A stretch of DNA of 61,065 nt, filler included, from Stramenopiles sp. TOSAG23-6 (Eukaryota): the NCBI GenBank assembly GCA_900128565.1. It is 16 parts of 16 records of this genome, joined end to end, with 100 filler letters (N's around TTAATTAATTAA, not from the genome) between each part and the next. Parts side by side here need not be neighbours in the genome. Positions count along the whole stretch, not along the records: positions 1 to 3,765 come from LT637387.1; positions 3,866 to 7,613 come from LT637388.1; positions 7,714 to 11,455 come from LT637389.1; positions 11,556 to 15,296 come from LT637390.1; positions 15,397 to 19,136 come from LT637391.1; positions 19,237 to 22,973 come from LT637392.1; positions 23,074 to 26,800 come from LT637393.1; positions 26,901 to 30,613 come from LT637394.1; 8 more parts are not named here. One strand, written 5' to 3'. Below are positions 170-61,065 of this stretch, in pieces (within the stretch, counting starts at the first letter, position 1; each line of letters starts with the position of its first letter). Made by a program: the position numbers and the translations under genes. The notes below the pieces were generated by a model. The model saw only the letters and a program-made list of their open reading frames with translations. It ran no database searches and was not told the origin of the DNA.

Positions 170-721
170 ATGTTTAAAAAAGAAACAACGTCAAGTTTTC
201 CAGGAAAATATGGAATTAAAAGATGAACAGGAGCGACTTGAAGGGGAAGTGAAACGCTTGAAAAAAAAACTGTTTAACCCTAACCCTAATGACATATGTT
301 TTATTTTTTTTTTCACAAAAAATCGAATGTTTTTTTTTCGTACGAAATTTTGTACCTAACAAAAAAAATTTTAAAGAAAATTTTGAAATATTTTTCCAAA
401 ATACACGTTGCTACAAAAAAAGGCGTAGAAGGTATAAAATGGTTATCAAAATGTGCAAATGCAGGTAATAGTGAAGCTCAATACGAATTGGGTGATCGTT
501 TTTTTGAAGGTGATGGTATTGAGGAAGATAAACAAGAAGCTATCAAATGGTATCGTCAATCGGCAACTGGAGGAAATCGAGAAGCACAATTCTGGCTAGG
601 TAAATGTTATTGTTTAGGTGATGGTGTTGATGAAGACGAACAAGAAGCTATTAAGTGGTTGACTGAAGCTGCTAATGCTGGCCATCCGGACGCACAAGAA
701 ATGCTTGATGAAGAATTTTAA
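170..721 (+). CDS. Coiled-coil + Sel1-like repeat protein, 3' part (exons ~170-293, 407-721)
   Basis: Sel1 repeats AQYELG..FFEGDGIEEDKQEAIKWY and AQFWLGKCY..GDGV; removing 294-406 joins ...NPND|VATKKG in frame. 5' boundary approximate. Confidence 0.75.
294..406 (+). mobile_element. Introner-like intron, AT-AC ends, flanked by AC/AC duplication
   Basis: gac|ATATGTTTT...TTCGTACGAAATTTTGTACCTAAC...TTTTCCAAAATACAC|gtt; phase-0 join of ORFs 129 and 296. Confidence 0.75.
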
Positions 722-1148
722 ATGTTTTGTATCGTATTTCTCTGATTGAAATTTCATAGTATTTTTGTTATTTTTGATATACAAACAGAATATTCAATAA
801 AACATTTGAAAATATCGTATTACATAGATAAAAATCAACAAAATTGTTTTTTCTTTTTACACTGTTACAATGGTAATTTAAAAAAAAAACAAAGTACAAA
901 TACAAAACTAAAAAACTAAAAAACTAAAAAAGTAAAAAACTAAATCATCAATTTTTTTAATGTTTACAATATTTCATATATTTGAAATTTGTCAAGTAAA
1001 AATACAAAACTAAATTATCAAATGTAAGTAAGAAACAAATTTTTGTTCTCCAAACATTTTCCATCTTTATGTTTTTCTTTTTTTTACGGTCAAATATTAG
1101 TCAAATGTTATTCAAATGTTAGTCAAATGTTATTCAAATGTTTGTAGT

Positions 1149-1799
1149 TTAATCAGACTCATCATCATCATCATCAGACTCATCATCATTTTCTTGAATG
1201 AATGTAATCCATTCCAATGTTTGAACACGTGCTTCCACACGGCCTTTTAAGGTTTCACTTTTATCATCAGACCAATCAACAAATGCCTCTTCAGATATAA
1301 TATCATTATCATACAATGTCATAAAAATCACTTCAATCAATCCTTTCGGAAACTTAATTTCATAACAAAATGATTGAACTGTAAATACACCATTTTTCAT
1401 TGTCTTTTTACAGGATTTTCCAAGAGTACTATATAAAACACGATAAAAGTCTCCACCTTCAGCAATTTCTGAAATAACATTTTCATCATCTTCATTCTTA
1501 GATACCATTGATGCAAAATTACCTTTCGATTTCTTTAGTAAATGTAATAAAACAGCAGTTAAAACATCAACACCACAACTGCCTTTTAATTTTTTACGAA
1601 GTTCCTTATCAACGATTCCTGAAGAGATCAAATCGAAGATTTCAGAGTTGACTGGAATGTTTTCTATCGCATCTGTCACAATTTTCGGAAGTGGAATAAA
1701 ACTGTCCAATAATTCTTTTGCTTTGGTATTTAGTGTAGAACAATCAACATACGATTTAGAAATTATTTCCTTCAAAACATCTTGAAATATTTCTGGTGC
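1149..1799 (-). CDS. Terminal exon with a W2 domain (eIF4G/eIF5/eIF2B-epsilon C-terminal type)
   Basis: LYDNDIISEEAFVDW and LEWITFIQE plus acidic tail; preceded by AAAACAG acceptor at 1800. Confidence 0.7.
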   Translation of the reverse strand, partial: APEIFQDVLKEIISKSYVDCSTLNTKAKELLDSFIPLPKIVTDAIENIPVNSEIFDLISSGIVDKELRKKLKGSCGVDVLTAVLLHLLKKSKGNFASMVSKNEDDENVISEIAEGGDFYRVLYSTLGKSCKKTMKNGVFTVQSFCYEIKFPKGLIEVIFMTLYDNDIISEEAFVDWSDDKSETLKGRVEARVQTLEWITFIQENDDESDDDDDESD

Positions 1800-2199
1800 C
1801 TGTTTTTTGAAAAATATTGTAAAAAACATGTTGTACAGATGAGTTTTTTTTTTTTGAGATTTTTTTTTTTTGAGATTTTTTTTTTTTTGTAGTGGGGAAA
1901 AAAATGTAAACATAAAAAAAATAAATGTTTCAGGCGGAAACAATCAGTCATCCGTAGGTTATCTAGGCCTACATTCAGAGGGCTTGGAATAGAAAGTTTG
2001 TCCTCATTAACATAAATTTGTTAGGTGCAAAAAATTTCGTATGATTTTTTTTTTGATTAGGGTTAGGGTTACGTACATAATATCGCATTCGTTTTTTAGG
2101 CCTTGTACTCCTTGTTGCTGTTCTAGGATCCGTCATTATTTTTTCAGGTGAAAAATCAGATAAACGTCTGTTTTCATCCGAATCATCATCAGTTGACTC

Positions 2200-2301
2200 A
2201 TGTATTATGAAAAATATTTTTTTTGTAATTTTTTTTGTTAGGTACAAAATTTCGTACGAAAAAAAAATGTAGACAAAAAATTGAAAAAAAATAAAACATA
2301 C
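2200..2301 (-). mobile_element. Introner-like intron, GT-AT
   Basis: gat|GTATGTTTT...core...AATACAT|gag gives SSDSSD|ESTDDDSDE. Confidence 0.65.
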
Positions 2302-2655
2302 ATCACTTGAATCACTAGAAGAAGAATTTGACTTATTTTTTTTTGATGTTTTTGATGTTTTTGATGTTTTTGATGTTTTTGATGTTTTTGATGTTGAACG
2401 TTTTGCATTATTATGTAATAGAATATGCTCAAAATCTTTATTTGATTTATTATTTTTTTTGTTTTTTTTTTTGAGATTTTTTTTGAGATTTTTTTTGAGA
2501 TTTTTTTTGAGATTTTGTTTTAGGGCTTGGTGGCGCTGGACGATATATGTATTTTGGAAAAATATTTCAAAAACAAAAAATCGTTAGGTACAAAATTTAC
2601 TATTAAAAAAAAATATTTTTTTAGTAAAAAAAAAAATTGAAAAAAAATAAAACAT

Positions 2656-3700
2656 ATACCAGAGCCCATGAAGTATCTTTTCCAGGTATTAACTTAAAAG
2701 GTTCACCTTTTTTTCTTTTGTGGTAATTATAACGGATACTCATCTTTCCTAATCGCTTAGTTGGCATGAAAAAAATATCTTTATATTCATTACATTGTAT
2801 AGTGTTAAAACCAATTCTGGGATACAAGCCTTTTTCACTTTTAAATTCAAGGATATCATCTTGAAATTGTTTTTTTGAATTACTGACGGAGGCGAAAAGT
2901 TGGAAATGTGTTTTGTAAAAATATTTCGAAAAAAAATTCAAAAAAAATCGTTAGGTACAAAATTTCGTACGAAAAAAAAAACATAAATTCGAAATTGAAA
3001 AAAAAAACAAACATACATTTTGTTTCCAAAAAAACTGTGCCACACTAGCGACACGATCTCTATAGTTTCGTTCATGTGTTCCAATGGATGTATTGTAAAA
3101 CAAATTTAAAAAAAAAAATGTTAGGTACAAAATTTTTTTACCAAAAAAAAAAAAAAATTTGAAAAAAAATTTTGTTAGGTACAAAATTTTTTACCAAAAA
3201 AAAAAAAAATTTGAAAAAAAAAAAAATTTTGAAAAAAAAAAAAAACATACATTCTCCGGATGAAGAACAACAAGAATCGTCAAATGAAATATATTGCTTG
3301 GTAGGTGCAAGTGGTAAATGACCATCATAGTCATCAACAATAATAACTGTTCCTTGTCGAAATCCTGATCCACTCGCATCCAACCCGAGATAAGCACGAG
3401 CATATTTTGTGAAATTTTTTTTTTTTTTTGTAAAAATTGTTAGGTACAGAATTACGTACAAAAAAAAATTTTAAAAAAAAATTTTAAAAAAAATTTTAAA
3501 AATTTTAAAAAAAAATTTAAAAAAAAACATTTTTAAAAAATTGAAAACGTACATCGGCGTAGCTTTCAATAAGCCTACCATTACTACGACTATATACGTA
3601 TAATGACATGGCAGTTTCCTTATTTGTCATATCAAATCCAAAAAATATTCTTAAATTGTAATTCTGTGCAGTATTTGAAAGAGAATTAGTAGCCTCATTT
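2656..3700 (-). CDS. Multi-exon uncharacterised protein fragment, split by introners at 2906-3016, 3088-3250 and 3402-3552
   Basis: Three successive GT-AT removals give one frame: IESYAD|ARAYLG...SSGES|IGTH...WKQN|FQLF. No family recognised; ends approximate. Confidence 0.5.
2906..3016 (-). mobile_element. Introner-like intron, GT-AT
   Basis: aat|GTATGTTTG...core...AAAACACAT|ttc, phase 0 on both sides. Confidence 0.7.
3088..3250 (-). mobile_element. Introner-like intron, GT-AT, with two branch-point cores
   Basis: gaa t|GTATG...AATACAT|cc att, phase 1 on both sides; TTTTGTACCTAAC twice. Confidence 0.7.
3402..3552 (-). mobile_element. Introner-like intron, GT-AT
   Basis: gat|GTACGTTTT...TGTACCTAAC...CAAAATAT|gct. 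Confidence 0.6.
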
Positions 3701-3765
3701 TTGTTTTCGTTTTTTTTTGTATTTTTTGTATTTTTTGTATTTTTTGTATTTTTTGTATTTTTTGT

Positions 3766-7475: not shown

Positions 7476-7574
7476 GTACGTTTTTTTCATTATGAATTTC
7501 AAGTTTATTTTTTTAACTACAAAATTTCGTACCTAATAAATTTCAAACTGTAAAACATATTTTTCACAATACAT
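7476..7574 (+). mobile_element. Introner-like intron, GT-AT, in an unidentified ORF (~7201-7613)
   Basis: gac at|GTACGTTTT...TTTCGTACCTAAT...CAATACAT|t ctc. Confidence 0.55.
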
Positions 7575-7800: not shown

Positions 7801-10236
7801 ATGGAAGTTTTAGACCAAAATGAACGCAATGCTACATTCGGAGCGACTATATTTCACGACTTAGTAGTAGGAGATAAATCTCAAGTAGTACAAGCTAAAT
7901 CATTACGAAATAATTGCTGGAAAAAAGCTTTCCACAGAATAAAAATGGATAATGTTACAAAAACTCATAAGAACATTTCTGGCAAAAGCAGAAAGAAGCT
8001 TACGAAGAGCTGGAAGAATGTATTTAATAGAGTGAAAATGGCAAATTCAGTAATGCATCAATTTGGACATTCTTCAAAATGGCTTGAACAGTCTAGGGGA
8101 TATCGTCGTGCCAGGGAAAAAAAACGGATGTCTTTATCACTTGACATTGACTGTGCCCAAACAGTTAGTAGTTGTAGTAGTAGCGAAGAAGACACTGAGA
8201 TGAATAGACCAAAAACTAGTGATACGAATACAAAAAGCAAAATACAAAGTTTGAGTAATTTGGGTGTAGATACAAAATCCATACATCGCATACGTCAAAA
8301 AAGGCCATCACTTCGTGCTGAACCGTCGTTTTATTTCGATACTTCAGGAATATTTACACATAATTCAGGTTTCCAGATCTCTCCTCGAGGACTTCGAGAT
8401 TTAGAGATACAAGGAAATTTCAGAGATAACTTTACTAGTAATACCAAAAGCAGTGACTTAATTCAGAAGCAAGATTTAAGTTCAAGTCAATCTTGTACAA
8501 AAAACACTGGAAAAATCAAACGTAAAAATGTTTTTTTATTTGATGAATTTTCTTCATCTCAATACCAGTCAAATACTAATAAGGCCATAAAAGAAGTTAG
8601 TATATATAAAGAGCAAGCTATGCGTCATCAATTACTTGCTGAACTTCGGTCCTTATCCTTTAATATTATATCAGCAGAATCCGTGCAGAAAAACCCATGT
8701 TGGAATTGCAATTTACAATTTGTCAATAGAAGTAGAAAAGTAGTGACTTTTGGTAGACATAAATATTCATCCAGGAGATTTTGTTCTGCCTGTTCAGCGA
8801 TATTTTGTGGATATTGCAAACGTTTTAAAATGAAGCGATTAGGAAAATCTGCACACACTTATATGTTTTATTTCAATTTCGAATTTTGTTTTCGTACGCA
8901 ATTTTGTACCTAACGATGTTTTTTTGAAATATTTTTCCAAAATACATGGATCTGCCTGGATTGTGATGCATCTGCACAACTTCAAATAAATCAAAATAAT
9001 CAGAAAGGAAATGACAAAACAAAATCTTGTATTGATATAGTAAACATTCATGATGTCTTTGTTTCTGGTGGAGCAGCAAAGATTGGTATTGCAATGGAGT
9101 ATATGTCACATGGTTCATTACAAGATTTGATAGATCAGGGGATTTATTTCTCAGAATCGATGTTAACAGTTATTGCACAGCACTGTTTTCGAGCTCTCAA
9201 ATATTTACATACACGAGATCCGCCTCTCATTCACCGTGATATAAAACCTGCTAATGTGTTGCTTAATGCTGCTGGGCAAGTGAAGTTATCTGATTTTGGA
9301 TTAGCAGCCGAATTAAAAGACAAACAAGCTAATATACAAATGAATTCATTGTACAACACAGAATATCAATCTACTGTGACAACTCCTAGAGGTAGTATTT
9401 TCAATAAAGAGTATGTTGGAACAGCTCAGTTTATGTCACCTGAGCGTTTAGATGGACGAGGTGCAGGATGCTCTAGTGATGTATGGTCTATGGGAGCCAC
9501 TTTACTTGCCTGTGGACTCGGGTTTGCTCCTTTTATTGGTAAAAATCATTTTGAATTACAAGAAAGTGTCTGCAAACGAAAACACCCTGAATTATCCGAG
9601 GACTTATTCTCATTGAAATGTCGAGATTTTATTGATTTATGTCTCAAAAAAAATCATAGAAAAAGACCCACAGCGTATCAGCTACTTTTATCTCACCCAT
9701 TTATAGACTCGGCGAGGGTTACTGAGGCAAGGAAGATTGCACTTCCATGGAAATATGGTCAACAAAACAACATGAATAATTTAAGTGAGCAGTCAAAGAA
9801 CGAATTGCTGAAAATTGCAAAAATAGTAGCGGAATTTTATTGTAATAAGTCACTGAAAAATGCTAATACCTCTTCGAATTTTATAGTGGATGAAGAATTT
9901 ACAAATAGTTTTAATCCTCTTCATATATTCGGTCTTGCAGAGCAATTGCTTCTACCTGTTGATGAAGTTCGAACCGCTTTTAATGCAGCTTTTTTAGCCG
10001 AACGTTCTAAACAAAAAAATACACATTGTCAAAGTGACCCCACTGAGAGTAGAAAGGATGCTTACATAAATAATGAATCGACATTAAATAGAAAACAAAA
10101 TAAAACTCGGCAGCGTCGACCTTCAGAGGTTTGGCGAAATATTTTTAATCCGAGGGGATTAAAGTCTACAGCTGGGACTATTCTAAATAGAGGTGTTATT
10201 TCTGCTGGAAGAATGCTTCAAATAATTCGTAAATAA
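7801..10236 (+). CDS. MAP2K/STE7-like kinase with a FYVE-type zinc finger (exons 7801-8860, 8948-10236)
   Basis: AIKEV...RHQLLAELRSL, IAMEYM, HRDIKPAN, LSDFG, VGTAQFMSPER, SDVWSMG; CxxC...CSAC..IFCGYC...WICLDC. Confidence 0.85.
8861..8947 (+). mobile_element. Introner-like intron, AT-AT
   Basis: act t|ATATGTTTT...TTCGTACGCAATTTTGTACCTAAC...CCAAAATACAT|gg restores H-T-W-I-C-L-D-C and removes the stop at 8911-8913. Confidence 0.75.
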
Positions 10237-10304: not shown

Positions 10305-11320
10305 TTATTTTCCATCTACTAGTTCAGCTAATCTTTTGGATCTTATTTTTCTTCGTTCAGTAATAGTTAAATCACTTGAATTAAAACTTGTCCTTCTTCG
10401 CCTTGAGTTTGAACGCAAATCTTCACGTCTGTTACTTCTATTTTTTACATTTACTGTGTCTTTTAATGAACTATTAGGGTTACGATTAAGGTGGGGGTTT
10501 GATTTGGTACTATTTCGAATCATCTCAACATGTATTTTATTTAATTTTGCACTTTGAACTTTCTGATGTAGTGTGAAAAAATATTTTAGAAAAAAAATCG
10601 TTACATACAAAATTTCGTACGAAAACAAATAAACTTTAAATTCATGATGAAAACATACATCCTCGATAAGATCAATACTTAAAACTTGTCTAATGGCGGT
10701 AATCCAATTTTTCATGACCTGCCCGTAATGCATTTTTTGTTCAGCTCCCATTGATGATAAAGGTCTTAATAACCATTTTCTATTTGTTGTATTTAAAATG
10801 TAATGTGAAACATATTTTTTTTTTTGGTTTAAAACATTTTGTTAGGTACAAAATTTTTATAAAAAAAAAATAAATTCGAAATTGGTAAAAAAAAAATAAA
10901 TTCGAAATTGGTAAAAAAATTCAATTTTGAAAACAAACACAAGTTTAGGTCGGACATCCCTCACACTTTTACATTTCGTAGTAGTATTTGGTACCACCCA
11001 GCTATTTCGTCTACTTCCACCAATGTAGTTGTATGCTATATTTTTTGTGTGTTTATCTCTATTCTCCCAATGTAAAATAATTATCCCGTTACCCGGTGCC
11101 TTGACCGTTCCCTGATTTTTCAAAACGTTGACAGAATGTACAAGAAAAATTTCATCATCAAAATTCTCTACCATTTTTTCTCGACAACAAGAATTAGGGT
11201 TAGGGTTTGACACAACATCCTTCGTTTCATTTCCATCTTTTCGTTTTTGCTTAAATCGAACAGAAAATTTGATACTTGGTGATTCAAAAAACGTAGTATC
11301 TTTTACAAGGAATTGCCAGT
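10305..11320 (-). CDS. PH-like domain protein, 3' part (introns 10798-10938, 10566-10658)
   Basis: PKLV-LNTTNRKWLLRP...MKNWITAIRQ resembles a PH C-terminal strand and helix; both family introns are 3n long and in frame. Confidence 0.5.
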
Positions 11321-13404: not shown

Positions 13405-15214
13405 ATGACGGAGTTATATATGCGGGATACAATAATAGAGTATCCTTTACCGAAATTACAACTGAGTGGCTCTTCATTGTGCTCCGATACGCATGGAAAT
13501 AGTAGGGAGTGCAAAAACGTTCTCTTAGATTGCAACAACTTACGATTTTGTTTTGGTTGTGCATCTAATATTCTAAATAATCGAAACATTACAGTATCTC
13601 GAAAGGTGGCAGTTATGGAAGATATGAATACATGTTTATATGTTTTGGATGGATCTCATCTGAGTGTACAGTCCAGAGTAAGGTTAGGTGAAACTCTGTG
13701 TGAACTCCTCAGCTCTTCTACACCCGAAATTTCAGAGCTAGCGTTTGAAGTTCTCGAAAGTCACTTCTTTACACCACTGTTCAAACATCTTTTAAAAATT
13801 GTTGTCAATATAATTAAGAAACTAGGTTGGTCTAAATCATTTCAATATCTCGATTTATTGTTTAGAATATGTTCAAAGAATGAAAGTGTTGCTCAAGAAC
13901 TTTCTCTACATTCTCATTTTTTATGTGGTCTAGTTCACGGACTAGGTTGCCTCATTGGTCAAATTCGTTTAATTTCTTGCAAACTCGCTTTCCTTTTGAT
14001 AGATACAATTGACACCAATAAATCCTATTTCAATGAAGCATTCCGCATGAATCCAGAAATCTTATTCATGAATCTCAAATTTGCAACGACTCTCATGAGT
14101 AGTTCTTCTGGATCTCTCGGTGTACCTTCAGATTTGAAAAGTAGTTATAATACATATAATACAACAAATGATAATTCTATTGATTATATCACAAAATTTG
14201 GTAGTACTATAGGAAACACTGTCCATGGGGCGAATACGACATTGAAGCTATCTCCCGAAGAATCTCTGGAATTTGTAAAGTATATGTACGTTTTCTTCTG
14301 AAAATTCCAATATTTCGTGTGACAATTTAAAAACAATATGTTTTTTTACTATGAAAATTTTGTACGTAACATTTTTTTCAAACGTAAATCATATTTTTTC
14401 ACAGCACACAATCCAACTTCTTCGAGTATTACTTACACATGATAATAATTCAATTCAATGGATGTTTTTTCGAAATAGTATAAAAAGTAATAATAAGCCG
14501 CAATATAGCAATCCGTTAGGTACGAAAATGGGTACAAATTTAATTTCAAATTTGCAAAGTAACTTTTCTCAAGATGATACCAACAAGCTCAGCTATGGTT
14601 TCAACGTTTTGATTTGCACTTTAAAAACACTTTTTTTAAGAAATGATATCGGAAATATGATTGGAATATCCTTTATGAATGGTATTCTAAAACAATGCAT
14701 TACACTAAATGATTCTCGTNNNNNNNNNNNNNNNNNNNNNNNNNNNNNNNNNNNNNNNNNNNNNNNNNNNNNNNNNNNNNNNNNNNNNNNNCATTTTTTT
14801 TCATACGAAATTTTGTACCTAACAAATTCTAGTTTTTTTTTTTTGAAATATTTTCCCAAAATACATGAATGTTTCATTTATTTGTCAAATGTCAAAATTA
14901 TTAATGAAAAGTTTTGTAGATAATGACATAACAGAATATATATTTGAAGCAATACGAAATTTCAATACACTTGAAATAAATAAAAATAATGGTATGAACA
15001 ATAGCACAAACAAACAAAACTTCAAAATCAATATCGAATTTGAAAATACTCAAAATGTAAAAATTGAAATATTAGATACTTTACTGTCACTCATATATAC
15101 TCCTGATTTTGCCTTTTACAAAAGATCTACTACTATTGTTGGAATCTCAATGGTAATGGTACTTGCAGAATTAGCAATTAAGAATGGTAATTCAACATTA
15201 ATCTTACGTGCTAT
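13405..15214 (+). CDS. MEI1/PRD1-like meiotic double-strand-break factor, 5' part with introns
   Basis: RFCFGCASNILNNRNITVSRK...LCELL...ELAFEVL...AQELSLH..LVHGL follows the MEI1 N-terminal pattern as I recall it (RLCLACALELL...VRK...LADEL...LLRGL). Confidence 0.55.
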
Positions 15215-15455: not shown

Positions 15456-18400
15456 ACCTCCCAAACTCTTTAAATAATGTAAAGTTTCCTCTTTAGCAAC
15501 TTCTTCACTCACATCGAAAACTAATTTATTAATTACATCATTTCCTTCTACATTTTTGAGCTTGACTATATTCTGATTTTTCACTCTACTCAGAATGAGC
15601 TTTGTAATATTGAGTGTTTTATCACCGCCTTCAATTGAATAGTGTATCGGCGTTTCACCCGCAGCATCTATTATATTAACTGATGCTTGCATTGTAACAA
15701 TACACCAGCGAGCCATCTTCAATGAACTGGACTTGGCAGCAGCATGAGCTAGACCCTGTAAATAAGTTTTGCTTTGTAGCTGCATTAGAATTGCTATTGG
15801 AATATGAGCAATTCTCGAAAAGTCAACGGCTTTATAATTCCTCAAATATGTAAGAGAAAGACACTCGTCCATATTATCTTCCGTAATTGCTTTATACATT
15901 GATAAAAACCATTCTGACATTCGTTTTTCCTTCATACGACAAATCCACCATCGTTCTATTTTTTTACAACTCGATTTCATATGATTCTGGACTCTTAGCA
16001 TATGGCGCAATCTCCAATTTCTTTGCACAACAGAAATACTCCACTTGTGAGAATAATATTTGATTTTATACTGTGATCTCTTAGCCCATCTAGATAATAA
16101 AATTTGGGCTTCTTTTATGCGGAAAAATTTATTCCGGGCTATAAACATACGCACTGTTGCATTCAACACTGATGTACCTATATATACTACACGCGCCATT
16201 GAACGATTTAAACACATTACACTAAACGCTGCTAATTCGGCATTTGATTGATTTTCTAATTCTGCTCTTCTGATCATCTTTTTGAGTAAATACCTCCCGA
16301 GAACTCCACGAATATGTTTTTGTACTCGCTTTTTCACTCGAAGATTATGTAATGCAGATAGAAGAGAATGACCAATGGATGATACTGCAATCTTTTCTTT
16401 CGATAGATTGATATAGTATTCTGTAAGTGCATTTAAGTCTTTGCTTGTTCTTTTTCTACTTAATCTCTTGCTGGCCTCATAAAATAAGGAATATAGATGA
16501 AAACTTTTCCAGCTGCGTTGGACAACTTTTGACGCGTCTACTGCAGCAATATTCCACTTATACTTTTTGCGTGCCTTTATACAATAAATCATTGATTGTA
16601 CCTTTCGTATTTTTGGTTCTAGTGCTTCATATTTTCTCTTGCTCAATACAGCGCGATATGTAAGTCCCAAATGTATTTTGGAAAAATATTTCAAAAAAAA
16701 TGTAAAAAAATTGTTAGGTACAAAATTTCGAACGAAAAAAAAAATTGGAATTTGAAAAAAAAATAAAACATACATTGGTCACTGCTTCAACATATTGGCG
16801 AAGTTTTTCTCGAGCGACCCAAAACTTTGACCACGTTTGAATAGTTGTAGTAACCTTGGACTGATGCCAGGTAGTCAATATATCGAGTGAGTTATCTTTG
16901 CCAAAAAAAAGTGTATGTATTTTGGAAAAATATTTCACAAAAAAAATCGTTAGAAACAACATTTCGTACGAAAAATAAATTCAAAATTGAAAAAAAACTA
17001 AAACATACATCTCCCATTGCCCAAAAATGTTTCTCTGAAGTTTCACCGGTAGCTGCATCCTTTATAGTCTTTGGCTTAGGAAGGACCGCATCAGCAATTT
17101 GTTTGGTTGCCTCTTTTGAATCCATGTTTTTATCCATACCCAGTAAAATGTGATATCCTTTTAGAATACATCGATTTTTCCAAAAGTTATCGTAGGTTTC
17201 TCTAAATGGGTATCCTTCCTTTTTAATCTTTACAACAGCCATCACACCTGCGTATAACAATTGCCTATATGTCTTCCAATCGTTAAATGCAGCTTCTCCA
17301 TCTATCGGTCTATAGTGTATATCGTTTGGTTTGACACATCGCACGTAATGAGGCGTGGTTGAATCTAAACTTTTTGACAGAGACGACAGCTGGTGAAGAT
17401 ATTTTGAGGCTAATGTTTTGAACTTTTTACCTTTCTTTTTCTCAGAATACAAATCTTTCACAAATGAAACAGTTGAACCTTGTACCAGTTCCGTCAACTG
17501 TGGTGGGAGTTTGTCCTTATTTTTTGGTAGAAATTCTTTAGCATTGTACTTGACATTTCCTGCGAAATGCACAATGTAGAAAATATGTTGCTTTTTCTTG
17601 TCACAAAAAAAGTATTCAGAAGCAGCCTTGGCCATTTTAGTTTTAGCTTTCTTAAAAATTCCTTTCTTTTTGCCATATTTTTTTGAACACATTGACAAAT
17701 AGTCTTTGTAATCTTTATTATCACTCATATCATCGAGCATAGGAAAAATACCCATAAACTTTTTTGTTTTCTTTGCTACTAAATTGCAGCAAGGACCATT
17801 GTCCTTATGTTCTGGTAACATTGAGGCATCCAATCCTTCACCAATATATGTATTGGCTTCATCATCAAACACATGATGATTAAACAGATATTGAAGTTTT
17901 TCGTTCGCAAAATTGATACAAAGTTGCTCAATTGAATTATTGGGCATAAGTTCAAACCCAAAGATATCCAGTAATCCCACAAAAGACTGTTTTTCGGACT
18001 TTGGCTCTAAGACTCCATTGCAAACATCATCAATCAACCAGTCGAAGACATGATCGTAAATATCTTTCGCCAAAGCATTGCGATTATCTTCAGATTTACT
18101 TGGATTACATGGTTTGTCTGCAAACTTACCTCCAGGTAAATTAATTCTATAAATTACGAGCATGTCACCGAAGGTTTTGGGCAAACCAAGTAATTCTGCA
18201 ACTTCTTCACAATAGCTTGGATCTTTAACTTTTGCTCCATCTCCATCTTTAACAAACTCAACACTTAATAGTTTGAGGCATCCTGCAATTGTGGCCCAAA
18301 GTACATGCTGTTGAGCCTCATCTACATTTGCAGCAGTAAGAGCAGCCCTAACGCCAGTGTCATCAGGATCATCTGCTAGAGGAGCATTCATCTTTAAGGC

Positions 18401-19137
18401 ATCATAATCAGCACCAAGGCCGTGTCCAATGAGTGAAGATCCACCTTCACAAAGTTTCGGATAATCATCGCAATTTTTCAATTTAAAATCTTCAACCTCT
18501 GTATGCCCACCTTCTTTTCCACCTCTGATAATTTCATAAAAGATGTGATAACTTCTTTCACCGGAACCTTGACCACATATATTGCGAAAAAATATTTTTT
18601 TTTGGTTTAAAAAATTCATTAGGTATACAATGTTTTGAAAAAAAAATTAATTTAAATTCATGATGGAAACGTACATAAACGTGCTTTTTCCAATAAGTAG
18701 TGCTCTAATTCCGCACCAATGATTTTACCGTCATTGAACCAAATCTTTGTAAATTTACCAAATCGGGAGGAATTATCATTCATGTTTGTTTTTGCATTTC
18801 CAAAGGCCTCTAAAAAAGGACTAACGCCCGCCACTAAAGAGGTTACATCTACGCCTCCTGTGAGTTTCTCTCCTTGTGACAACTTACGCCAGTTGGATAA
18901 TTTAGCTAAATATTTCATTATGAACCCACAAGCAACTGTCTTACCAGCACCAGATTCACCTGAGACTACGCAACTTTGATTTATTTTTTCCAAAGAAGTG
19001 TCTTGGCTGCCCCAATATGCGAAATGAGCCGAGGCATATGCATTCGGTTCAGTACCTAATTTATAATTTTTTTGATTTGGATACTCCGCAATATCTACCA
19101 TTTTTGGAAGTAACATATATGGGTTTAAGCATAGTAN
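15456..19137 (-). CDS. Myosin with IQ-like neck and C-terminal ankyrin repeats (partial, 3 internal introners)
   Basis: SGESGAGKT, LEAFGNAKT..NDNSSRFGKF, ERSYHIFY, LDIFGFE, EQLCINFANEKLQ, PHYVRCVKPN; tail GETPIHY. Confidence 0.93.
16671..16773 (-). mobile_element. Introner-like intron, GT-AT
   Basis: acc aat|GTATGTTTT...CCAAAATACAT|ttg gga, phase 0. Confidence 0.8.
16915..17008 (-). mobile_element. Introner-like intron, GT-AT
   Basis: gga gat|GTATGTTTT...CCAAAATACAT|aca ctt gives WAMGD-TLFFGK (myosin converter G.TK.F motif position). Confidence 0.8.
18577..18674 (-). mobile_element. Introner-like intron, GT-AT (diverged)
   Basis: tta t|GTACGTTT...CAATATAT|gt ggt gives LLEKARLCGQGSGERSYHIFY with normal myosin spacing. 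Confidence 0.85.
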
Positions 19138-19346: not shown

Positions 19347-20739
19347 GTGGACCTCATCAAAATTGAGTTGGAAGAGAAACAAGAGGAGCACGCTGCAGCC
19401 TGGGCCTCGAAAAAGGCAAAGAAGAAGAAAAAAAAGAAGGAAAAGAAAAGGAAAAAGAAACACGAAACATCAAGGGATAGAAAGAGGGCTAAGCGTAGAC
19501 GTAAAGCTCGTTCTAGTTCTTGGTCTACATCGTCGTCTAGTTCAGGGGAAGAAGTCTCCTCTAGTCATGCTCGACCAAATCATACAAACTACCTCGACGG
19601 AGAGCGTCTAATAATAGATTTACTTGTTGGTAGGGATTCTCTGAAGTCAGATTTATTAGCTGTATTGTCGGCATTGGATAACAGTCAGTCTATAGATCTT
19701 GGAGATGTTGCTGACTCAACTGTAAGAAATTCTTTAACGTCGATATTTAGACAAATTGGACTTTTTGAAACTCACGGAAAGAAGCAATTTAAAAAGTCTG
19801 ACTTTAGTATTAGTTTAGTTGATAGATACAAACACCTTTTGTCTAATAATGATAGTACCAGTTCTAGTGACAAAATATCAAAGGATGCGGCTGTGATTGA
19901 CAATGATGATAAACTTGTTGAGAAAAAACAAGAATGTATTCCAAAAACTGTCAAAATTATTGGAGCTTCTAAGCCCCCTCAGGGATGGGTACAACAAACT
20001 TCATCAAATGTCATGGTTGATCATATTCCTTCTGCTGCAGAAGAGTCATCCGAAGATGAATGTATTGGACCTTTCGCTGCAGAGTCAAAGTATTCTAGAA
20101 AAGCTGATCCAAGTACAGTTCAAATGGTAGCAAAAAGTGCGGACAAGGAAAAACGACGTCGTCGTCGAATGAAGAGAAGAATGTGGCAAAAGCGAACTGG
20201 TTTAAAAGTTGAAGATACAAGTAGTTACTCTGATAGTGATGATAATAATGAAGCTTCTTATAAAACATCTATGCCTACACAAAGGGATTCTTGGATGACG
20301 TCACTTCCTGATAAAGGGGATACTGCTAGAATTTTAGGAGCATTGGAGAAAAAGGGTAAAACGCGACATTTTCGGACAGATGATTCCACAAATATTCACC
20401 AAGATTCGTCCTGGACAGACACTCCAGGTACTAAAAAAAAAAGAAAGGCCACAACCAATTCAAATTCTTCAAAATCTGAGAGAAATATAAAGAAAAAAAA
20501 ACAGAACATAGAAAGTAAACGACTTTTAGATTTACATGTACGTTTGCAATTTCAATTTATTTTTTTTTGAAAATTTTGTACCTAACAAATTTTAGTTTTT
20601 TTTTTTGAAATATTTTGTCACATCACATAAATACATCATTGAATAATAGTTAGGTTCTAGATGCAAGGTCCGAGATATGAAGGGTGTGAATAGCGCTGTT
20701 GCTGATGCTACTTCTGGATTAAATAGTCGTTTTTCCTAA
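19347..20739 (+). CDS. GPALPP1/DUF3752-like protein, partial; 3' junction unresolved
   Basis: CIGP, RDSWMTSLP, SSWTDTP, LLDLH and a terminal LNSRF; introner starts at 20538. Confidence 0.55.
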
Positions 20740-20834: not shown

Positions 20835-21228
20835 TTAATTGTATAGTAAACTAAATAAATATTCGCACTCAAGTGTACCATCAGAAGGTAAAAGAGTTGA
20901 CATCACACCAGATTGAGTCTGACTAACGCCATATATTTTGGAAAAATATTTCAAACTTTTTTTTGTTAGGTACAAAATTTCGTACGAAAAAAAATTGGAA
21001 TTTGAAAAAAAAATAAAACATACATCAACTGAGCTTCCTGAAATCAGCGACACAAGTTTCTGAATTATTATTCTGAGATTGCTGTCCAGGTCGAATTTCC
21101 ATAGCCATACATGTATTGTGAAAAATAGTTTTGATTTTGTTTTGTTAGGTACGAAATTCCGTATGAAAAAAATATATAAAAAAAAAAAAAAAAAAAAAAT
21201 AAAACTTTTTTTNNNNNNNNNNNNNNNN

Positions 21229-48115: not shown

Positions 48116-48596
48116 TTACATTACGAGATCTTCTGGATTTGTTGACGAAGAAAGACCTTCATCATAATTTTGTTGAATTCTCTCCGTCCAATATGAAAAA
48201 TTGTCATTTTTTGTACCAAATTTCGTACCTAAAGATGATGTCGTTGTTTTCGTACCAATTTTCGTACCTAAAGAATTCTCTTTATCCTCAATATTTAGTA
48301 TATTGGGAACTTCTCCTTTGACAATGTGTCCAACGACAATGTAGAATCAAAACATATGTCTCAAAAAAAAAAAATGTTAGGTACAACTTTTCATATAAAA
48401 ACAAAATTTCAAAAAAAAAAATTCAAAAAAAAAAAAATCATAATTTTTTTTTTGAAATGAAAACATAAAAAAAAAAGGAAAACATAAAATGAAGACATAC
48501 ACAGTGATATCATCTGGTTTACCACCAATACTTAATTCAGCTGCATTCTTTCCAAGTTGTTTTCGTGCATTTTTAGAAAATGGTGAATCAACAGTT
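48116..48596 (-). CDS. PPTC7: PP2C-family phosphatase, PTC7/PPTC7-like, last two exons (missing from the ORF track)
   Basis: DSPFSKNA...GGKPDDITV|VVGHIV... after removing GT-AT intron 48339-48500; stop at 48116-48118. Confidence 0.75.
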
Positions 48597-48766: not shown

Positions 48767-49602
48767 AGTGAACAATTTCAAGCTGATAATATTAAAAAAT
48801 GTAAAATCTTTATTGGGCCAAGTTGTAATTCAGTGTTTCTTCGAAACTGTGTAGATTGTAGCATCACTGTTGCTTGTAAACAATTGCGAACTCGGGTATG
48901 TTTTTCAAAATTATTATTATTTTTTTTTTTTTTTTGGTTTTCGTACGAAATTTTGTACCTAACAAAAAAAATTTAAAAAATATATTTTTTTCACAAAACA
49001 GGATTGTTCCAATTGTGACATATTTTTATATGTAAAAACTGATCCAATCATTGAAACCTCATCATTAATGCGTTTTGGACCGTATAATGGATCTTATCCA
49101 TTACAAGATAAACATTTTGTATCTGCTAAATTGGATCCGAATGATAACCATGTACTTTTTCTTTTTTTTTTTTCATATGAAATTTTGTACCTAATTTTTT
49201 TTTTTTTTCGTACGAAATTTTGTACCTAAACTAAAAAGATTTTTTTTTTTGTTTTTTTTTACAATACATTGGAAAAGATTATTTGACTTTAATAAAGGAG
49301 ATCCTTCCATTCCTGAACCTCATTGGGAATTACAAAATGAAGAAAGTAATCCTGAAATGTGGATCATAAATGATGAAATTTTGGGTACAACTGAGTTTGG
49401 AGAACCCGTGAACCCGGTACCATTTGATGCTGGTTGTGTTGTTAGAGACCAGGAAGGCAATATTTTAGATGGAATTGGTGAAATTGGTGGAATTAAAGCA
49501 TTTTCTTTTGGTACTTCTCAAGAGGAAGCTGCCAAAATTATGGAAAAAGATGCAGAGAAGGCAGCTGCAGTAGCTGCTGCAAAGGATGTGAAGCAATTTT
49601 AA
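48767..49602 (+). CDS. XRP2/TBCC-domain protein (exons 48767-48895, 49002-49151, 49270-49602)
   Basis: EQFQADNIKKC...SVFLRNC..C.ITVACKQLRTR|DC.NC...TDPIIE...FGPYN..Y...NH|WKRLFDF; first intron GT-AG, second GT-AT, same family. Confidence 0.85.
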
Positions 49603-53380: not shown

Positions 53381-53633
53381 ATGAATTTTGGAAAAATATT
53401 TCAAAAAAAAAATTTTAAAAATTGTTAGGTACAAAATTTCGTACGAAAAAAAAATCGAATTTGAAAAAANNNNNNNNNNNNNNNNNNNNNNNNNNNNNNN
53501 NNNNNNNNNNNNNTTAATTAATTAANNNNNNNNNNNNNNNNNNNNNNNNNNNNNNNNNNNNNNNNNNNNATACGAAATTTTGTATCTAACAAATTTTAGT
53601 TTTTTTTTTTTGAAATATTTTTCCAAAATACAT

Positions 53634-54308
53634 GCAGGTCAATTTGTTATGGAAGGGTTCATGGAATGGCATATAAAGCCGTGGCAGCGTGTTGCAATAA
53701 CTCGTTCTATTGCTATTGGTCCTGCAATATTTGTTGCAATGGCAGCATCTGGCCATCCTGCTGCAGCGGACACTCTTGATCAATGGTTGAATATTTTACA
53801 ATCTGTTCAGTTGCCATTTGCAATTTTACCTGTATTACACTTTACAAGTCAAGAACGAGTGATGTATGTTTTATTTTTTTTTCAAATTCCAATTTTTTTT
53901 TCGTACGAAATTTTGTACCTAACAAAACAATTTTGAACTATTTTTCCAAAATTCATGGGTTCATTCGCGATTGGAAAATTTATGAAGATTTCCATTTGGT
54001 TCGTCTCATTGATGATTATTATTATCAATTTTTTCCTAGTTGAAAATTTTGTGACAAATCCTCTCAGTCCAACTCCACACAATTCTTTTTTTTACGTCAG
54101 TGTAAGTATCATTTGTATATTATATTTGGCTTTCATTACACGTATTGTTAAATCAGACATTTTGGGATTTTTGTATTATATTGGCTTAATTACCGATGCA
54201 ACACGTTTGAAATATTCACCGATGCGTAAATCCAGTCAATTAGTTGTGTTTAATCCTCTCTATGATGATATCAATTTCACTGAGGCATTGATTCCTAATG
54301 ATATGTAG
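53634..54308 (+). CDS. NRAMP: NRAMP/SLC11 divalent metal transporter, last two exons
   Basis: AGQFVMEGF, ITRSIAIGP, WLNILQSVQLPFAILP.LHFTS...MGSF. Confidence 0.92.
53864..53956 (+). mobile_element. Introner-like intron, GT-AT
   Basis: gtg at|GTATG...core...CCAAAATTCAT|g ggt gives ERVMGSF; I see no AG in the intron. Confidence 0.88.
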
Positions 54309-58115: not shown

Positions 58116-59780
58116 TCAACTTGAATTTTCAAAATTCTCATATCTCTCATAACCTGGTGCTTTCACATCTATTAGCCATCGTAATACTTCAAACTCGTTA
58201 TAATTATTTTCAGCTGCTGAAATACACGTACGTTCATTCCATGGACAAGGTGGATTTTGACTTCTTAACCATTTTAATACTTCTAAGTGACCAAATTCAG
58301 CTGCTTGAGAACACGTATCTTCATTCCATGGACAAGGTGGATTTTGACTTCTTAACCATTTCAATACTTCTAAATGACCTTCAGAAGCTGCATAGAGACA
58401 AGTATCTTCATTCCACGGACAAGGTGGATTTTGACTTCTTGCCCATTTCAATACTTCTAAGTGACCAAATTCAGCAGCTAAAGAACACGTATCTTCATCC
58501 CAAGGACAAGGTGGATTTTGACTTTTTACCCATTTCAATACTTCTAAGTGACCACATCCAGCTGCTTCAGAACATGTTCCTACATCCCAAGGACAAGGTG
58601 GATTTTGACTTCTTAACCACTTCAATACTTCTATGTGACCAATTCCAGCTGCTTGAGAACACGTATGTTCATTCCAAGGACAAGGTGGATTTTGACTTTT
58701 TACCCATTTCAATACTTCTAAGTGACCATTTCCAGCTGCAAAACCACACGTAGATTCATCCCATGGACAAGGTGGATTTTGACTTCTTACCCATTTCAAT
58801 ACTTCTAACTGACCACTTCCAGCTGAAAAATGACATGTTCCTCCATTCCAAGGACAAGGTGGATTTTGACTTCTTAGCCAGATCAATACTTCTAAGTGAC
58901 CATTTCTAGCTGCTCCATAACACGTATCTTCCTTCCATGGACAAGGTGGATTTTGACTTCTTAACCATTTTAATACTTCCAAGTGACCATTTCCAGCTGC
59001 TTGAGAACACGTATGTTCATTCCATGGACAAGGTGGATTTTGACTTCTTAACCATTTCAATATTTCTAAGTGACCATTATAAGCTGCAGACCTACATGTG
59101 ACTTCATTCCATGGACAAGGTGGATTTTGACTTCTTACCCATTTCAATACTTCTATGTGATCATTTTTAGCTGCTGTACTACACAGCCAACGATCCCATG
59201 GACAAGGTGGATGATGACTTCTTAACCACTGTAATCTTTCTAACTCACCTAATTCATCTAAGACCCCTACTTTGAGAAGCCTTAATGTATAACGCGATTT
59301 CTTTGAAAAGTTGAACCCAGTCATCCAAGCTCTATCTTGACCATGTAGTACAAGTCTGCTTGCAAGTCTATCTTTACTAGGTAAAAAATTTGCAATGACG
59401 ACAGCAGGGCCTAGTCCACTAAAAACTCGTTGAAGTTTCTCTTCTTCTTCTGCTGTTCTCTGGCGCTGAGGTAAACCAAGTGCATTTCGCAAGTCGGTTA
59501 TAATTTCTGCAACTTCTGCTGATTTATAAATTCTTGTACGTTCTGTTTCAGCAATAAACTTTCCAAGAGATGTGACAAAATCAATTGCATCCTTACTCCT
59601 ATACTTTCGTGTAAGCACAAAGTCTATAGACTCACTGCAGTTTGACAATCGTCGACGTTTTTGATTGTGTTCTACAGATATTTTTGTTGACTGTAGGTTC
59701 ACTTTTACATTTTCCTCATTCTCTAAAGGCTTTACAGAAGTATTTTGCTCATGCAATACATTTCTTGTGCGGTTAAGCAT
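58116..59780 (-). CDS. Ankyrin-like CPW-repeat protein, 12 units of 29 aa, intronless
   Basis: GHLEVLKWLRSQNPPCPWxxxTCxxAAxx; 87-nt DNA periodicity from ~58240 to 59230. Confidence 0.88.
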   Translation of the reverse strand: MLNRTRNVLHEQNTSVKPLENEENVKVNLQSTKISVEHNQKRRRLSNCSESIDFVLTRKYRSKDAIDFVTSLGKFIAETERTRIYKSAEVAEIITDLRNALGLPQRQRTAEEEEKLQRVFSGLGPAVVIANFLPSKDRLASRLVLHGQDRAWMTGFNFSKKSRYTLRLLKVGVLDELGELERLQWLRSHHPPCPWDRWLCSTAAKNDHIEVLKWVRSQNPPCPWNEVTCRSAAYNGHLEILKWLRSQNPPCPWNEHTCSQAAGNGHLEVLKWLRSQNPPCPWKEDTCYGAARNGHLEVLIWLRSQNPPCPWNGGTCHFSAGSGQLEVLKWVRSQNPPCPWDESTCGFAAGNGHLEVLKWVKSQNPPCPWNEHTCSQAAGIGHIEVLKWLRSQNPPCPWDVGTCSEAAGCGHLEVLKWVKSQNPPCPWDEDTCSLAAEFGHLEVLKWARSQNPPCPWNEDTCLYAASEGHLEVLKWLRSQNPPCPWNEDTCSQAAEFGHLEVLKWLRSQNPPCPWNERTCISAAENNYNEFEVLRWLIDVKAPGYERYENFENSS

Positions 59781-60147
59781 TATTCCAAATCTCTACAATG
59801 TTTTTGTTGTGATAATAATATGATAGGTACCCGAACTTGACAATCTCTAGCTCAAGAGACACCATTGCCAAATTTGATCGAAGAATCGACCGTTTAAAAT
59901 TAGTCTAACGTAATTCGTACCAAAACTTTGTACCTAATTTTTTACGTTGATTGGTCAAAAATTATACACGCTAAGCACGGACGATATAATTATTAAATTA
60001 TTGTTAAGCAAAACCAAAGCTTTAAGCTTCCCCAATCTAAATTTGATATTATCCGAGTAAACCTCTCTCTCTACTCACAAAACTTAAACGCCGAAATAGA
60101 TTGCAGTCTATAGTATTATAGTAGCCTTTAGAAGCGATTATTTTGCA

Positions 60148-60993
60148 ATGCTTCCTGCTGCTTTAGAAGTTTTCAAGCATGGTGTGGAGAGCATTTTTGA
60201 TTACTTGTTTGTTGTTGCTGGTGGAGAGTTCCTATTTTTCTGTGTTACTGTTGGCAGCACCCTTCTATATTTAAAACTCTCCGGAAGAGATGGCATGCCT
60301 CGCATGTTTGTACGGGCTCTTGTCATATGTGTGGCTCTTGTAGAAGTGATATTCCTTCTTCACTTTTACTTTCATGGAGCAGAATTCCTCCAGTCTGATA
60401 TTGTAAAAAAGCACTGGCCTGAGTTGAGCACTCCAAAATATGAAAAACAATTCGACGATGCGTGTGAAACTCGTTTGGTGAGTGTGAAATTGTGGATGAA
60501 AGGAGAGATTCCTGCAATAGATGTAGTCAAGGAAAACATTGATGGGTATGTAATGAGTCACTTGTTCGGACATACAATTGTGACAGCTTTCGTTACACAA
60601 GCTCCATTAGTCGGTTTTGTAGTATCATTAACTCATGAACTTCTTGAAGCAATCTACAGTCACGCATACCCTCCATTCTCTGAGTGTTGGTGGGATTCGT
60701 ATGTCCTCGATATTGGATCAAATTTTGTTGGTTGCTTTATTTTTGGTCCATTTCTAATGTGGTTATTTGGTTTTAAACAACGTAATTTTTTTCGTTGGCC
60801 TCACTTTATCATGATTATTGCCTGTGTAGCGAATCAAATGACAACGTTCCCTGTGACCTTTTGGCTTCCTCATGTATTCGGTATACCACCAAAACATCAT
60901 ATAGCTGTTTTAAACATGATGTTATTACAAGTGAATTGGAATATGATTATGCTTGATCAAGCCTGGAAACGAGCTCAAGGAGATGAAGCCTAT
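60148..60993 (+). CDS. PTDSS: Phosphatidylserine synthase (base-exchange PSS family), first exon
   Basis: IDGYVMSHLFG, HELLE..YSH..PPFSECWWDSYVLDI..N..G. Confidence 0.8.
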
Positions 60994-61065
60994 GTATGTT
61001 TTTTTTTTTCCAATTTCGAATTTATTTTTTATAGTAAATTTTGTACCTAACAATTTTTTTTAGAT

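Follow-up and report, generated by a model that had tools for sequence, protein, structure and literature searches.

The window analysed here is the whole of a 61,065-base stretch of DNA from Stramenopiles sp. TOSAG23-6, and is made up of 16 contigs of about 3.8 kb each that are sorted by falling length. The DNA is gene-dense, with long exons and a G+C content of 34%. Pfam domains identify CCT-epsilon, a myosin head, a protein kinase, an amino-acid transporter, the N-terminus of an acetyl-CoA synthetase, a TMEM260-like transferase, NRAMP, a lysine methyltransferase and many ankyrin proteins. Set among these genes are about 45 copies of a single element, 90–160 nt in size, which supplies nearly all of the visible introns in the sampled contigs. 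Most of these introns open with a GTAYGT donor and end in AT. As a reading of the family, a non-AG, mostly GT-AT, AG-independent 3' splice site is supported with respect to the intron boundaries; the machinery and the signal behind it are what we infer.

The contigs are separated by 15 linkers of the form N44-TTAATTAATTAA-N44, in which the 12-nt TTAATTAATTAA stands between two runs of N (for example 3766–3865; centres at 3810, 7658, 11500 ... 57312). Of the 32 contig ends, 11 have a copy of the element no more than 12 nt away, a pattern that fits an assembly interrupted by an abundant repeat.

The best named relatives of CCT-epsilon (62–64% identity) are from oomycetes, brown algae, a xanthophyte, chrysophytes and a pelagophyte, while oomycete proteins are the closest among the named relatives of the TMEM260-like protein (~45%). 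The latter is 99% identical to a public gene model, EukProt P0256 (label GSMAST32.ASY1.ANO1.2688.1). From these labels and best hits, the host would be, at the level of lineage, a marine heterotrophic stramenopile of the MAST-3 kind. A diplonemid origin was considered because noncanonical introns have been reported in marine diplonemid single cells, in those passages of the literature that were available. It was ruled out since CCT-epsilon, myosin and the TMEM260-like protein each find their best named relatives among stramenopiles.

Runs matching contig 5, which carries the myosin gene, were of three types: two DNA runs labelled 'organism A', seawater metagenomes, and polyA seawater metatranscriptomes. 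Assembled contigs from the RNA runs X5, X6 and X8 and from the DNA run X2 were aligned to 15397–19136 only, and the joints discussed are those listed in the alignments. The introns whose ends are fixed by RNA or by homologous proteins, together with the donor half of a second MetH copy, are as follows.

16671..16773, minus strand: myosin intron, GTATGT...ATACAT, 103 nt; RNA contig X6 record 19; gap-free against 7 of 8 homologues.
16915..17008, minus strand: myosin intron, GT..AT, 94 nt; RNA ends at 16914 (X5 record 11) and 17009 (X6 record 20); gap-free against 8 homologues.
18577..18674, minus strand: diverged member in the myosin motor domain, GTACGT...ATATAT, 98 nt; 8w41_A and 8 homologues; DNA contig X2 record 7.
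37974..38116, plus strand: MetH intron, GTACGT...CACAGTACAT; an AG 5 nt upstream of the end is unused; 4ccz_A residues 214/216.
38184..38236, plus strand: second MetH intron, donor half, cut by the contig end.
39712..39805, minus strand: TMEM260-like intron, GTACGT...ATACGT; 14 homologues; read through in P0256.

The RNA contig X6 record 19 aligns to 16774–16888 (record positions 19–133) and to 16533–16670 (134–271) with no mismatch or gap. Thus it joins 16774 to 16670 and skips exactly 16671–16773. The aligned piece of X5 record 11 is exactly 16774–16914, the exon between two elements, and the piece of X6 record 20 stops at 17009, which is the final base of the exon ahead of the next donor. 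On the DNA side, X2 record 6 spans 16749–16936 without a difference and X2 record 7 covers 16975–18760, both with the elements kept, and the table of differences for X2 lists no change at any splice site. Independent DNA thus carries the elements and polyA RNA lacks them exactly, so the AT ends cannot be put down to assembly errors and removal takes place at the level of RNA. An AG in DNA where the assembly has AT, which would have spoken against such ends, was not seen in the X2 contigs, which keep AT.

Comparison with structures and homologues fixes five junctions without a gap: three in myosin, one in MetH and one in the TMEM260-like protein. For the myosin intron 18577–18674, the exon ending ...HYLLEKARL aligns to myosin VI (8w41_A) through residue 235 and the second residue of the next exon is placed at 238, leaving exactly one split codon in between. 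The myosin product spliced at all three junctions is gap-free to 7–8 of 8 homologues (52–67% identity), one of which shares the exact string LCGQGSGERSYH. For the MetH intron 37974–38116, the exon ending ...ISGT stops at residue 214 of human 4ccz_A and the 22-residue downstream exon starts at 216. The spliced TMEM260-like product is gap-free to 14 homologues. Two of the joins proposed by a sequence-only reading of the window, EKARL-C-GQ in myosin (collinear with 8w41_A and 8 homologues) and ISGT-I-VDQSG in MetH (residues 214 then 216), are therefore confirmed.

The joins proposed in the same reading for NME7, NRAMP and the AspH-like, XRP2-like and PPTC7-like genes retain the agreement of reading frame, and gained no homology across the junction. 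The upstream exon of NRAMP matches NRAMP structures and the downstream exon has no match in the PDB. The upstream exon of the NME7-like gene has only chance PDB matches, and its downstream exon begins precisely where the second NDK domain does (8g2z_1M residue 238). In the hydroxylase-like gene, the Pfam coordinates stop short of the exon ends. A phmmer search with the 322-codon exon upstream of the intron at 43567–43678 (42601–43566, plus strand) returned 0 relatives at E ≤ 0.001 among 1.84 billion representative proteins.

The gene model P0256 translates the whole of the element at 39805–39712 in frame as VRFHYEFRIYFFSYEISYLTNFTKKIFFLNTC (32 residues) and drops a conserved 27-residue segment, GLTPYLY...SWGNTGTIS. 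From this read-through, it is evident that the introns were unrecognised when that genome was annotated, and gene models of this organism are probably wrong wherever such introns occur. Translated element motifs were found in none of the predicted proteins among the 255 homologues searched; P0256, which was fetched later, carries one.

The family itself is well defined. A 24-mer core, TTCGTACGAAATTTTGTACCTAAC, has 32 matches in the window at no more than 3 mismatches versus 0 in 100 shuffles, and an nhmmer profile made from 7 copies has 43 non-overlapping matches at E ≤ 1e-3 in 59 kb. The family first counted at about 50 copies is thus real and far above chance, with a number that is nearer to 45. 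The elements lie in unrelated genes (myosin, MetH, NRAMP, a kinase, the TMEM260-like gene and others) and are 58–90% identical to a majority consensus that runs GTATGTTTTATTTTTTTTTCAATTTCGAATTTTTTTTT, then CGTACGAAATTTTGTACCTAAC, then an A/T run, then GAAATATTTTTCCAAAATAC and two bases. Internal palindromes, AAATTCGAATTT and TTCGTACGAA, are present. Older copies (7476, 10658, 18674, 3552, 14286, 21882 and 39805) retain three blocks: the starting GTAYGT, a (T)ACCTAAY or GTAAC motif, and a near-terminal ...ATATTTTT(C)CACAATAC. The 3' block reads ...ATATTTTTCCAAAATAC, or CACAATAC in the older copies, and its retention in old copies is the main reason to think that it acts in splicing.

Orientation was assessed crudely, by adding up the longest open frames found within the 240 nt to either side of a match. 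By this measure, 39 of the 43 nhmmer matches have the more open frame on their own strand. The four exceptions comprise two copies in the hydroxylase-like gene, one between divergent genes (or in a 5' untranslated region, UTR) and one cut by a contig end; in the hydroxylase-like gene, closely spaced introns and short exons break the open reading frames (ORFs), yet the sense frames join. All 29 of the introns curated below are in sense, in agreement with the earlier statement that every gene-interrupting copy is.

A few further observations concern the family. A weak antisense fragment of the element (14512–14558, minus strand, E = 0.013) lies inside a plus-strand open frame and is the sole antisense piece in a putative exon. 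At 48560–48780, two cores stand head to head (48647–48670, minus strand; 48697–48720, plus strand) between divergent genes, the plus-strand copy ending in ...TTACCCTTACAG; they may be 5' UTR introns of both genes. A telomere-like repeat, CCCTAACCCTAA, occurs directly after the GTACGT donor in the MetH intron (37979–37996, plus strand) and at 2052–2072 (minus strand), in a possible intron starting at 2076, as well as in the exon directly before the element at 294 (277–290, plus strand). It could be the mark of a second subfamily of introns, or of a favored target. In the bin that holds an element at 16647–16771, the summed contig depth is ~10,000x that of single-copy bins in DNA run X2 (61106 vs 5.99) and ~4,000x in RNA run X5. 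These depth figures are not copy numbers; they hint at thousands of copies and at abundant element-containing RNA. A search for the 24-mer core in metagenome-contig and viral-contig collections returned 0 matches, and a 20-mer of the 3' block returned 15 loci, none of which matches the element by nhmmer, so that all are chance.

A set of 29 complete introns was curated by requiring long open frames on both sides. The curated introns and partial copies that are not given above are as follows.

294..406, plus strand: family member, ATATGT...ATACAC (AT..AC), AC repeat flank; frame open for 97 + 104 codons.
2200..2301, minus strand: member, GT..AT; frame 94 + 74 codons; in-frame AG 3 nt downstream.
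2545..2659, minus strand: member, donor GTATATGT, end ATACATAT; frame 97 + 189 codons only with these ends.
2906..3016, minus strand: member, GT..AT, by frame.
3088..3250, minus strand: member with a duplicated core, GT..AT, by frame.
3402..3552, minus strand: diverged member, GTACGT...AAATAT, by frame.
7476..7574, plus strand: diverged member, GT..AT; 97 codons upstream, downstream exon cut by the contig end after 12.
8861..8947, plus strand: member with a kinase downstream exon, ATATGT...ATACAT (AT..AT); frame 370 + 428 codons.
10566..10658, minus strand: member, GT..AT; in-frame AG 3 nt downstream.
10798..10938, minus strand: member, GTTTGT donor, GT..AT; frame 139 + 163 codons.
14286..14412, plus strand: diverged member, GTACGT...CACACAAT; AG of CACAG unused; frame 312 + 102 codons.
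20538..20628, plus strand: member after a 433-codon ORF with 5 codons following; weak, maybe near a stop or in a 3' UTR.
20931..21023, minus strand: member, GT..AT with an ATATAT end, by frame.
21531..21663, minus strand: NME7-like intron with an N gap inside, GTTTGT...ATACAT; downstream exon at the second NDK domain.
21784..21882, minus strand: diverged member, GTACGT...ATACTT (GT..TT), TT repeat flank; frame 77 + 50 codons.
24078..24177, minus strand: diverged member ending CCAG (GT..AG); frame 497 + 108 codons.
29841..29929, minus strand: Asp/Asn hydroxylase-like intron, GT..AT, by frame only.
29998..30118, minus strand: Asp/Asn hydroxylase-like intron, GTAAGT...ACACAT, by frame only.
30229..30331, minus strand: Asp/Asn hydroxylase-like intron, GTACTT...AACAAAT; AG of TTTAG unused; by frame only.
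34526..34617, minus strand: complete element, downstream exon lost at the contig end.
43567..43678, plus strand: member, GTAAAC donor, GT..AT; frame 322 + 282 codons; in-frame AG 33 nt upstream.
48339..48500, minus strand: PPTC7-like phosphatase intron, GT..AT; junction DDITV-VVG, by frame.
48896..49001, plus strand: member ending CACAAAACAG (GT..AG); cut aligned with the AT ends.
49152..49269, plus strand: member with two tandem cores, GTACTT...ACAATACAT; frame 63 + 110 codons.
53570..53633, plus strand: NRAMP intron, acceptor half at a contig start, ending ATACAT.
53864..53956, plus strand: NRAMP intron, GT..AT; frame 97 + 116 codons.

Read from the conserved GTAYGT, the termini of the 29 introns are GT-AT in 23, GT-AG in two (24078–24177 and 48896–49001), and AT-AC, AT-AT, GT-TT and GT-GT in one each. 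Both the restoration of the frame upon removal of GT...AT and the scarcity of AG-ending members had been reported in the sequence-only reading, and both stand. Seven further copies that show only their 3' end all finish in CAT. At the 5' end, 26 of the 29 introns have GT and 2 have AT, the context being GTAYGT; donors are mostly GTATGTTTT or ATATGTTTT, with ATATGT, GTACGT, GTTTGT, GTAAGT and GTAAAC as variants. At the 3' end, a block ending A(C/T)NN is the constant feature (25/29, read by eye), the last three bases are a pyrimidine-A-pyrimidine triplet (CAT, TAT or CAC) in 22/29, and an A occupies the second-last position in 27/29. This A is known from cryo-electron microscopy to contact the branch adenosine, and the pattern would fit, by analogy, a spliceosome that is relaxed at the last base only.

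The exon dinucleotide before the donor equals the last dinucleotide of the intron in 20 of 29 cases versus 15.1 expected (P ~4e-4 by shuffling). The 2-nt direct repeat is mostly AT, the sole AC end is flanked by AC and the sole TT end by TT, as a 2-bp target-site duplication would leave. Imperfect repeats are found in the copies at 8861–8947, 10798–10938, 29998–30118, 39712–39805, 43567–43678 and 48339–48500. As a consequence of the repeat, cuts at GT..AT, TG..CA and AT..AC give an identical mRNA in 20/29 introns.

The explanation that we consider probable is that the family is a high-copy, non-autonomous introner resembling a miniature inverted-repeat transposable element (MITE), which is spliced from GT to two bases past ATAC in a marine stramenopile. 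According to this model, the element would bring with it a yeast-like donor (GTATGT or GTACGT), a CTAAC branch motif, a T run and the conserved 3' block. Insertion of a cut-and-paste type would duplicate two bases of the target, mostly AT, either because the element prefers AT or because it creates it, and RNA processing would then remove the element along with one copy of the repeat. The intron would thus extend from the GT of the element to the dinucleotide two bases past its terminal ATAC, usually AT and sometimes AC, TT, GT or AG. Judging by the GTAYGT donor and CTAAC, a U2-type spliceosome would cut directly before GT; the 3' cut, inside the duplicated target bases, would be placed by the 3' block or by position and not by AG. 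Introners can bring one splice site themselves and recruit the duplication for the other (available sections of PMC11282704). Since the duplication here supplies no AG, the host machinery must either accept A-pyrimidine or place the cut by the block.

The alternative that survives best has the same elements spliced with the 5' cut 2 nt ahead of GTATGT and the 3' cut immediately behind ATAC, so that the introns would be mostly AT..AC and of U2 or minor-spliceosome type. We regard it as unlikely, though it merits more attention than the other alternatives. In its favor, the mRNA would be the same in the 20 introns with a perfect repeat, 18/29 introns would read AT..AC in that register, and AT-AC is a known workable terminal pair (passages seen of PMC11282704). 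Against it, the rest of the copies would start with AC, TT, GT, GG, AA, CT or TG, giving eight different 5' dinucleotides overall, versus GT in 26/29 with the GT register. The two AG-ending members, 24078 and 48896, have their 3' cut where the AT ends have theirs in the alignment and are canonical GT-AG introns only in the GT register, which also makes 294–406 a classical AT-AC pair. U12-type introns are defined by /RTATCCTT as an extended donor and by TCCTTAAC as a branch site close to the 3' end. No /ATATCC-type donors are present in the family, and no branch motif lies near the 3' end; with donors of GTATGTTTT or ATATGTTTT and CTAAC 20–47 nt away from the 3' end, U12-type AT-AC introns were rejected.

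One copy discriminates between the registers. The intron at 39805–39712 has AA before its donor and GT at its end, so that no leftward rotation is possible. A cut before GT predicts ...GNTGT-I-S-GFFHH (TISGFF) and a cut 2 nt upstream predicts ...GNTGT-M-C-GFFHH (TMCGFF). Among the 14 homologues, the second junction residue is S in 6/14, A in 4/14 and C in 0/14, and the first is mostly V, L or W, with M in 0/14. The presence of S or A, and never C, favors the GT register at this intron. On the strength of these sequence comparisons, the GT register would be preferred over the alternative by a clear margin of likelihood.

A second alternative, which appears improbable, is excision from RNA by a non-spliceosomal route in which the inverted ends pair, as proposed for the nonconventional introns of euglenids and hemistasiids. 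The short inverted ends AUGUAU / AUACAU could pair, and the nonconventional introns also have direct repeats at their borders (in available parts of PMC11282704 and PMC12621601). An RNAalifold analysis of 14 copies, in contrast, produced no end-to-end helix, only a 6-bp internal hairpin in the TTCGTACGAA palindrome (−2.3 kcal/mol, 0 compensatory pairs). To the eye, none of the variant donors (ATATGT, GTACGT, GTTTGT, GTAAGT and GTAAAC) comes with a corresponding change in the 3' block. Even old copies keep a strong U1-type donor and CTAAC, which are absent from nonconventional introns, as far as the accessible text of PMC6221363 goes. Euglenozoan nonconventional introns were rejected as a class on the basis of the absence of a predicted stable end pairing, the kept GTAYGT donor and the stramenopile relatives.

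With no end helix and no covarying ends, pairing of the ends is not supported as a guide to the 3' site of the GT-AT introns. The distance from CTAAC to the cut varies, which indicates that distance from the branch point does not set the 3' site either. The first pyrimidine-A-pyrimidine after the branch motif (TAT in GAAATATTT) is also left unused. The conserved 3' sequence block (CCAAAATAC) is a better candidate for the 3'-site mark than RNA structure. The sequence-only reading had the 3' site chosen from the motif or structure of the element and not from AG; the non-AG ends and skipped AGs are consistent with this, and the conserved structure is the part that did not find support.

A third alternative, about as improbable as the last or slightly more so, is that splicing of most copies is at ordinary AG acceptors a few nucleotides off and that the AT ends are an artefact of frame-based curation. 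A nearby in-frame AG is compatible with the frame in three copies, 3 nt downstream at 2200–2301 and 10566–10658 and 33 nt upstream at 43567–43678. Against this, RNA and the collinearity of homologues fix the end in three myosin introns, MetH and the TMEM260-like gene, 15/29 introns lack an in-frame AG in the interval between 45 nt upstream and 30 nt downstream, and the 7/7 acceptor-only copies end in CAT. In 11/29 introns, an AG located after the branch motif and before the 3' end is left unused (for example TTTTAGTTTT, CACAGTACAT, CACAGCACACAAT and TTTAGAACAAAT); in MetH, splicing at the CACAG that lies 5 nt short of the real end would put a conserved block out of frame. From the removal at the level of RNA, the retention in DNA and the skipped AGs, it follows that the acceptors are non-AG under every reading.

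The last alternative, that the elements are removed from DNA like ciliate internal eliminated sequences (which are likewise short and AT-rich with a 2-nt repeat of which one copy is left behind) or are assembly artefacts, so that the AT ends have nothing to do with splicing, is the most improbable of all and was rejected, as X2, an independent metagenome assembly, has the elements in matching positions, giving two independent DNA sources, the joined form is in a polyA RNA contig, and the 39/43 sense bias is not expected from excision of DNA.

Several observations weigh against the proposed GT-AT introner and should be set beside it. Among the joints listed, RNA supports one junction completely and another two through the ends of aligned pieces; the three belong to a single gene and derive from assembled contigs of two runs of one study. 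The transcript check suggested by the sequence-only reading thus provided one exact GT...AT removal and two piece ends at junctions, along with abundant element-containing RNA contigs for which retention, lariats or DNA carry-over are possible sources. For 20/29 introns, mRNA cannot separate GT..AT from AT..AC, and the sole discriminating copy, 39805–39712, leans on two moderately conserved residues. An in-frame AG is present within 45 nt upstream to 30 nt downstream in 14/29 introns, and among these, homologues show non-use only for MetH and myosin 18577–18674. An Rfam scan of the window gave 0 matches, leaving no spliceosomal RNA to inspect. The transposon origin is an inference, given that Pfam identified no transposase domain among the large ORFs of the window, no empty site was seen, and the inverted repeat at the element ends, GTAT(G)TTT / AAA(A)TAC, is very short at ~7 nt.

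The sequence-only reading named Fritillaria and Amoebophrya as known analogues, and comparison with the literature agrees. In Fritillaria borealis and F. pellucida, AT is the commonest 3' intron end (34% and 44%), followed by AC, and the introns are MITE-derived with a pyrimidine-A-pyrimidine triplet as the last three bases (PMC13326754). F. borealis has duplicated U2AF1 and U2AF2, and the diverged pair binds non-canonical 3' ends (PMC13326754). The family described here shares with Fritillaria short elements with inverted ends, which are putative here, and a likely target duplication, a 3' splice site in the duplicated bases (PMC13326754; PMC11282704, both from the passages available), AT as the commonest 3' end and the terminal pyrimidine-A-pyrimidine (22/29 here). 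It differs in that the 5' ends in Fritillaria are mostly AG with only 5% GT/AG (PMC13326754), compared to GT in 26/29 and a strong GTAYGT here. The triplet is usual before the 5' site of Fritillaria and is found there in only 8/29 of the present introns. Fritillaria is also an animal, a tunicate, whereas the host here is a protist whose best named relatives are stramenopiles.

The introners of Amoebophrya, a group of parasitic dinoflagellates, resemble the present family in being repeated introns and with respect to inverted repeats (putative in the present family), direct repeats at the borders (3–5 nt there), non-GT-AG ends and a boundary ambiguity caused by the repeats (PMC7789003, accessible sections). 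In the same sections, no dinucleotide pattern dominates, hairpins of 8–20 nt are the distinguishing feature and U1 was not found. Here, in contrast, GT-AT accounts for 23/29, the inverted ends are ~7 nt, no end hairpin is predicted and the donor looks well suited to U1. The introners of Micromonas pusilla and Aureococcus anophagefferens are likewise MITE-like, with one splice site brought along and the other taken from the target duplication (portions seen of PMC11282704), and number thousands of copies in sense in unrelated genes (portions seen of PMC11282704 and PMC7789003). Those introners are GT/GC-AG since their duplication supplies AG; here, the duplication is AT and so is the acceptor. 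The AT-AC introns of U2 type are resembled by one member of the 29, 294–406, which has an ATATGT donor and an AC end. The AT-AC introns follow a rule of pairing between the first and last base. The pairing that is common in the present family, with G first and T last, is, to our knowledge, not a described class.

Large surveys of introners start from annotated introns and hand-check families with unfamiliar splice sites (PMC12130899, in the passages available). Surveys that rely on annotated introns would miss a single-cell genome that is unannotated or annotated with GT-AG introns. A search of the literature, with supplementary splice-site tables outside its scope, returned no GT-AT introner and no description of such introns in stramenopiles. 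The passages obtained from four marine stramenopile genome papers (PMC5778133, PMC9903769, PMC3998028 and PMC6972860), again with supplements outside the search, make no mention of them.

Transposon-derived non-canonical introns were known before; the lineage and the clean GT-AT signature are new. The terminal AG is among the most constant of eukaryotic gene signals and very few lineages are known to do without it. In its broadest form, the interpretation would be that a whole lineage of marine heterotrophic stramenopiles, themselves abundant, moved its 3' rule from AG to a site defined by position or motif, usually AT, independently of Fritillaria and after a burst of some ten thousand copies of one 2-bp-duplicating introner, leaving public gene models systematically wrong; we see this as evenly poised between true and false. 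If true, it would be a second, independent case of a spliceosome adapting to the target duplication of a transposon. Because the 5' and branch sites are kept in textbook form, the lineage would isolate the question of the 3' site cleanly. With one dominant non-AG end on a single young family, the rules of 3' choice, such as the roles of U2AF, of second-step factors and of pairing between first and last base, would become directly testable. Since P0256 translates the element and loses a conserved segment, proteome predictions bound to GT-AG are likely corrupted at many genes of the group.

Single N bases are scattered over two contigs (39031–39416, 39778–39788, 40161–41421, 46002 and 46935), some of them inside the intron 39712–39805, which suggests a low-quality consensus at those places. 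Short tandem repeats are present in coding-looking regions at 2330–2520 (minus strand), 32580–32760 (plus strand), 49600–49666 and 50140–50420; examples include GATGTTTTT units, K/Q/E-rich runs and a repeated FPNFCIVF-like unit.

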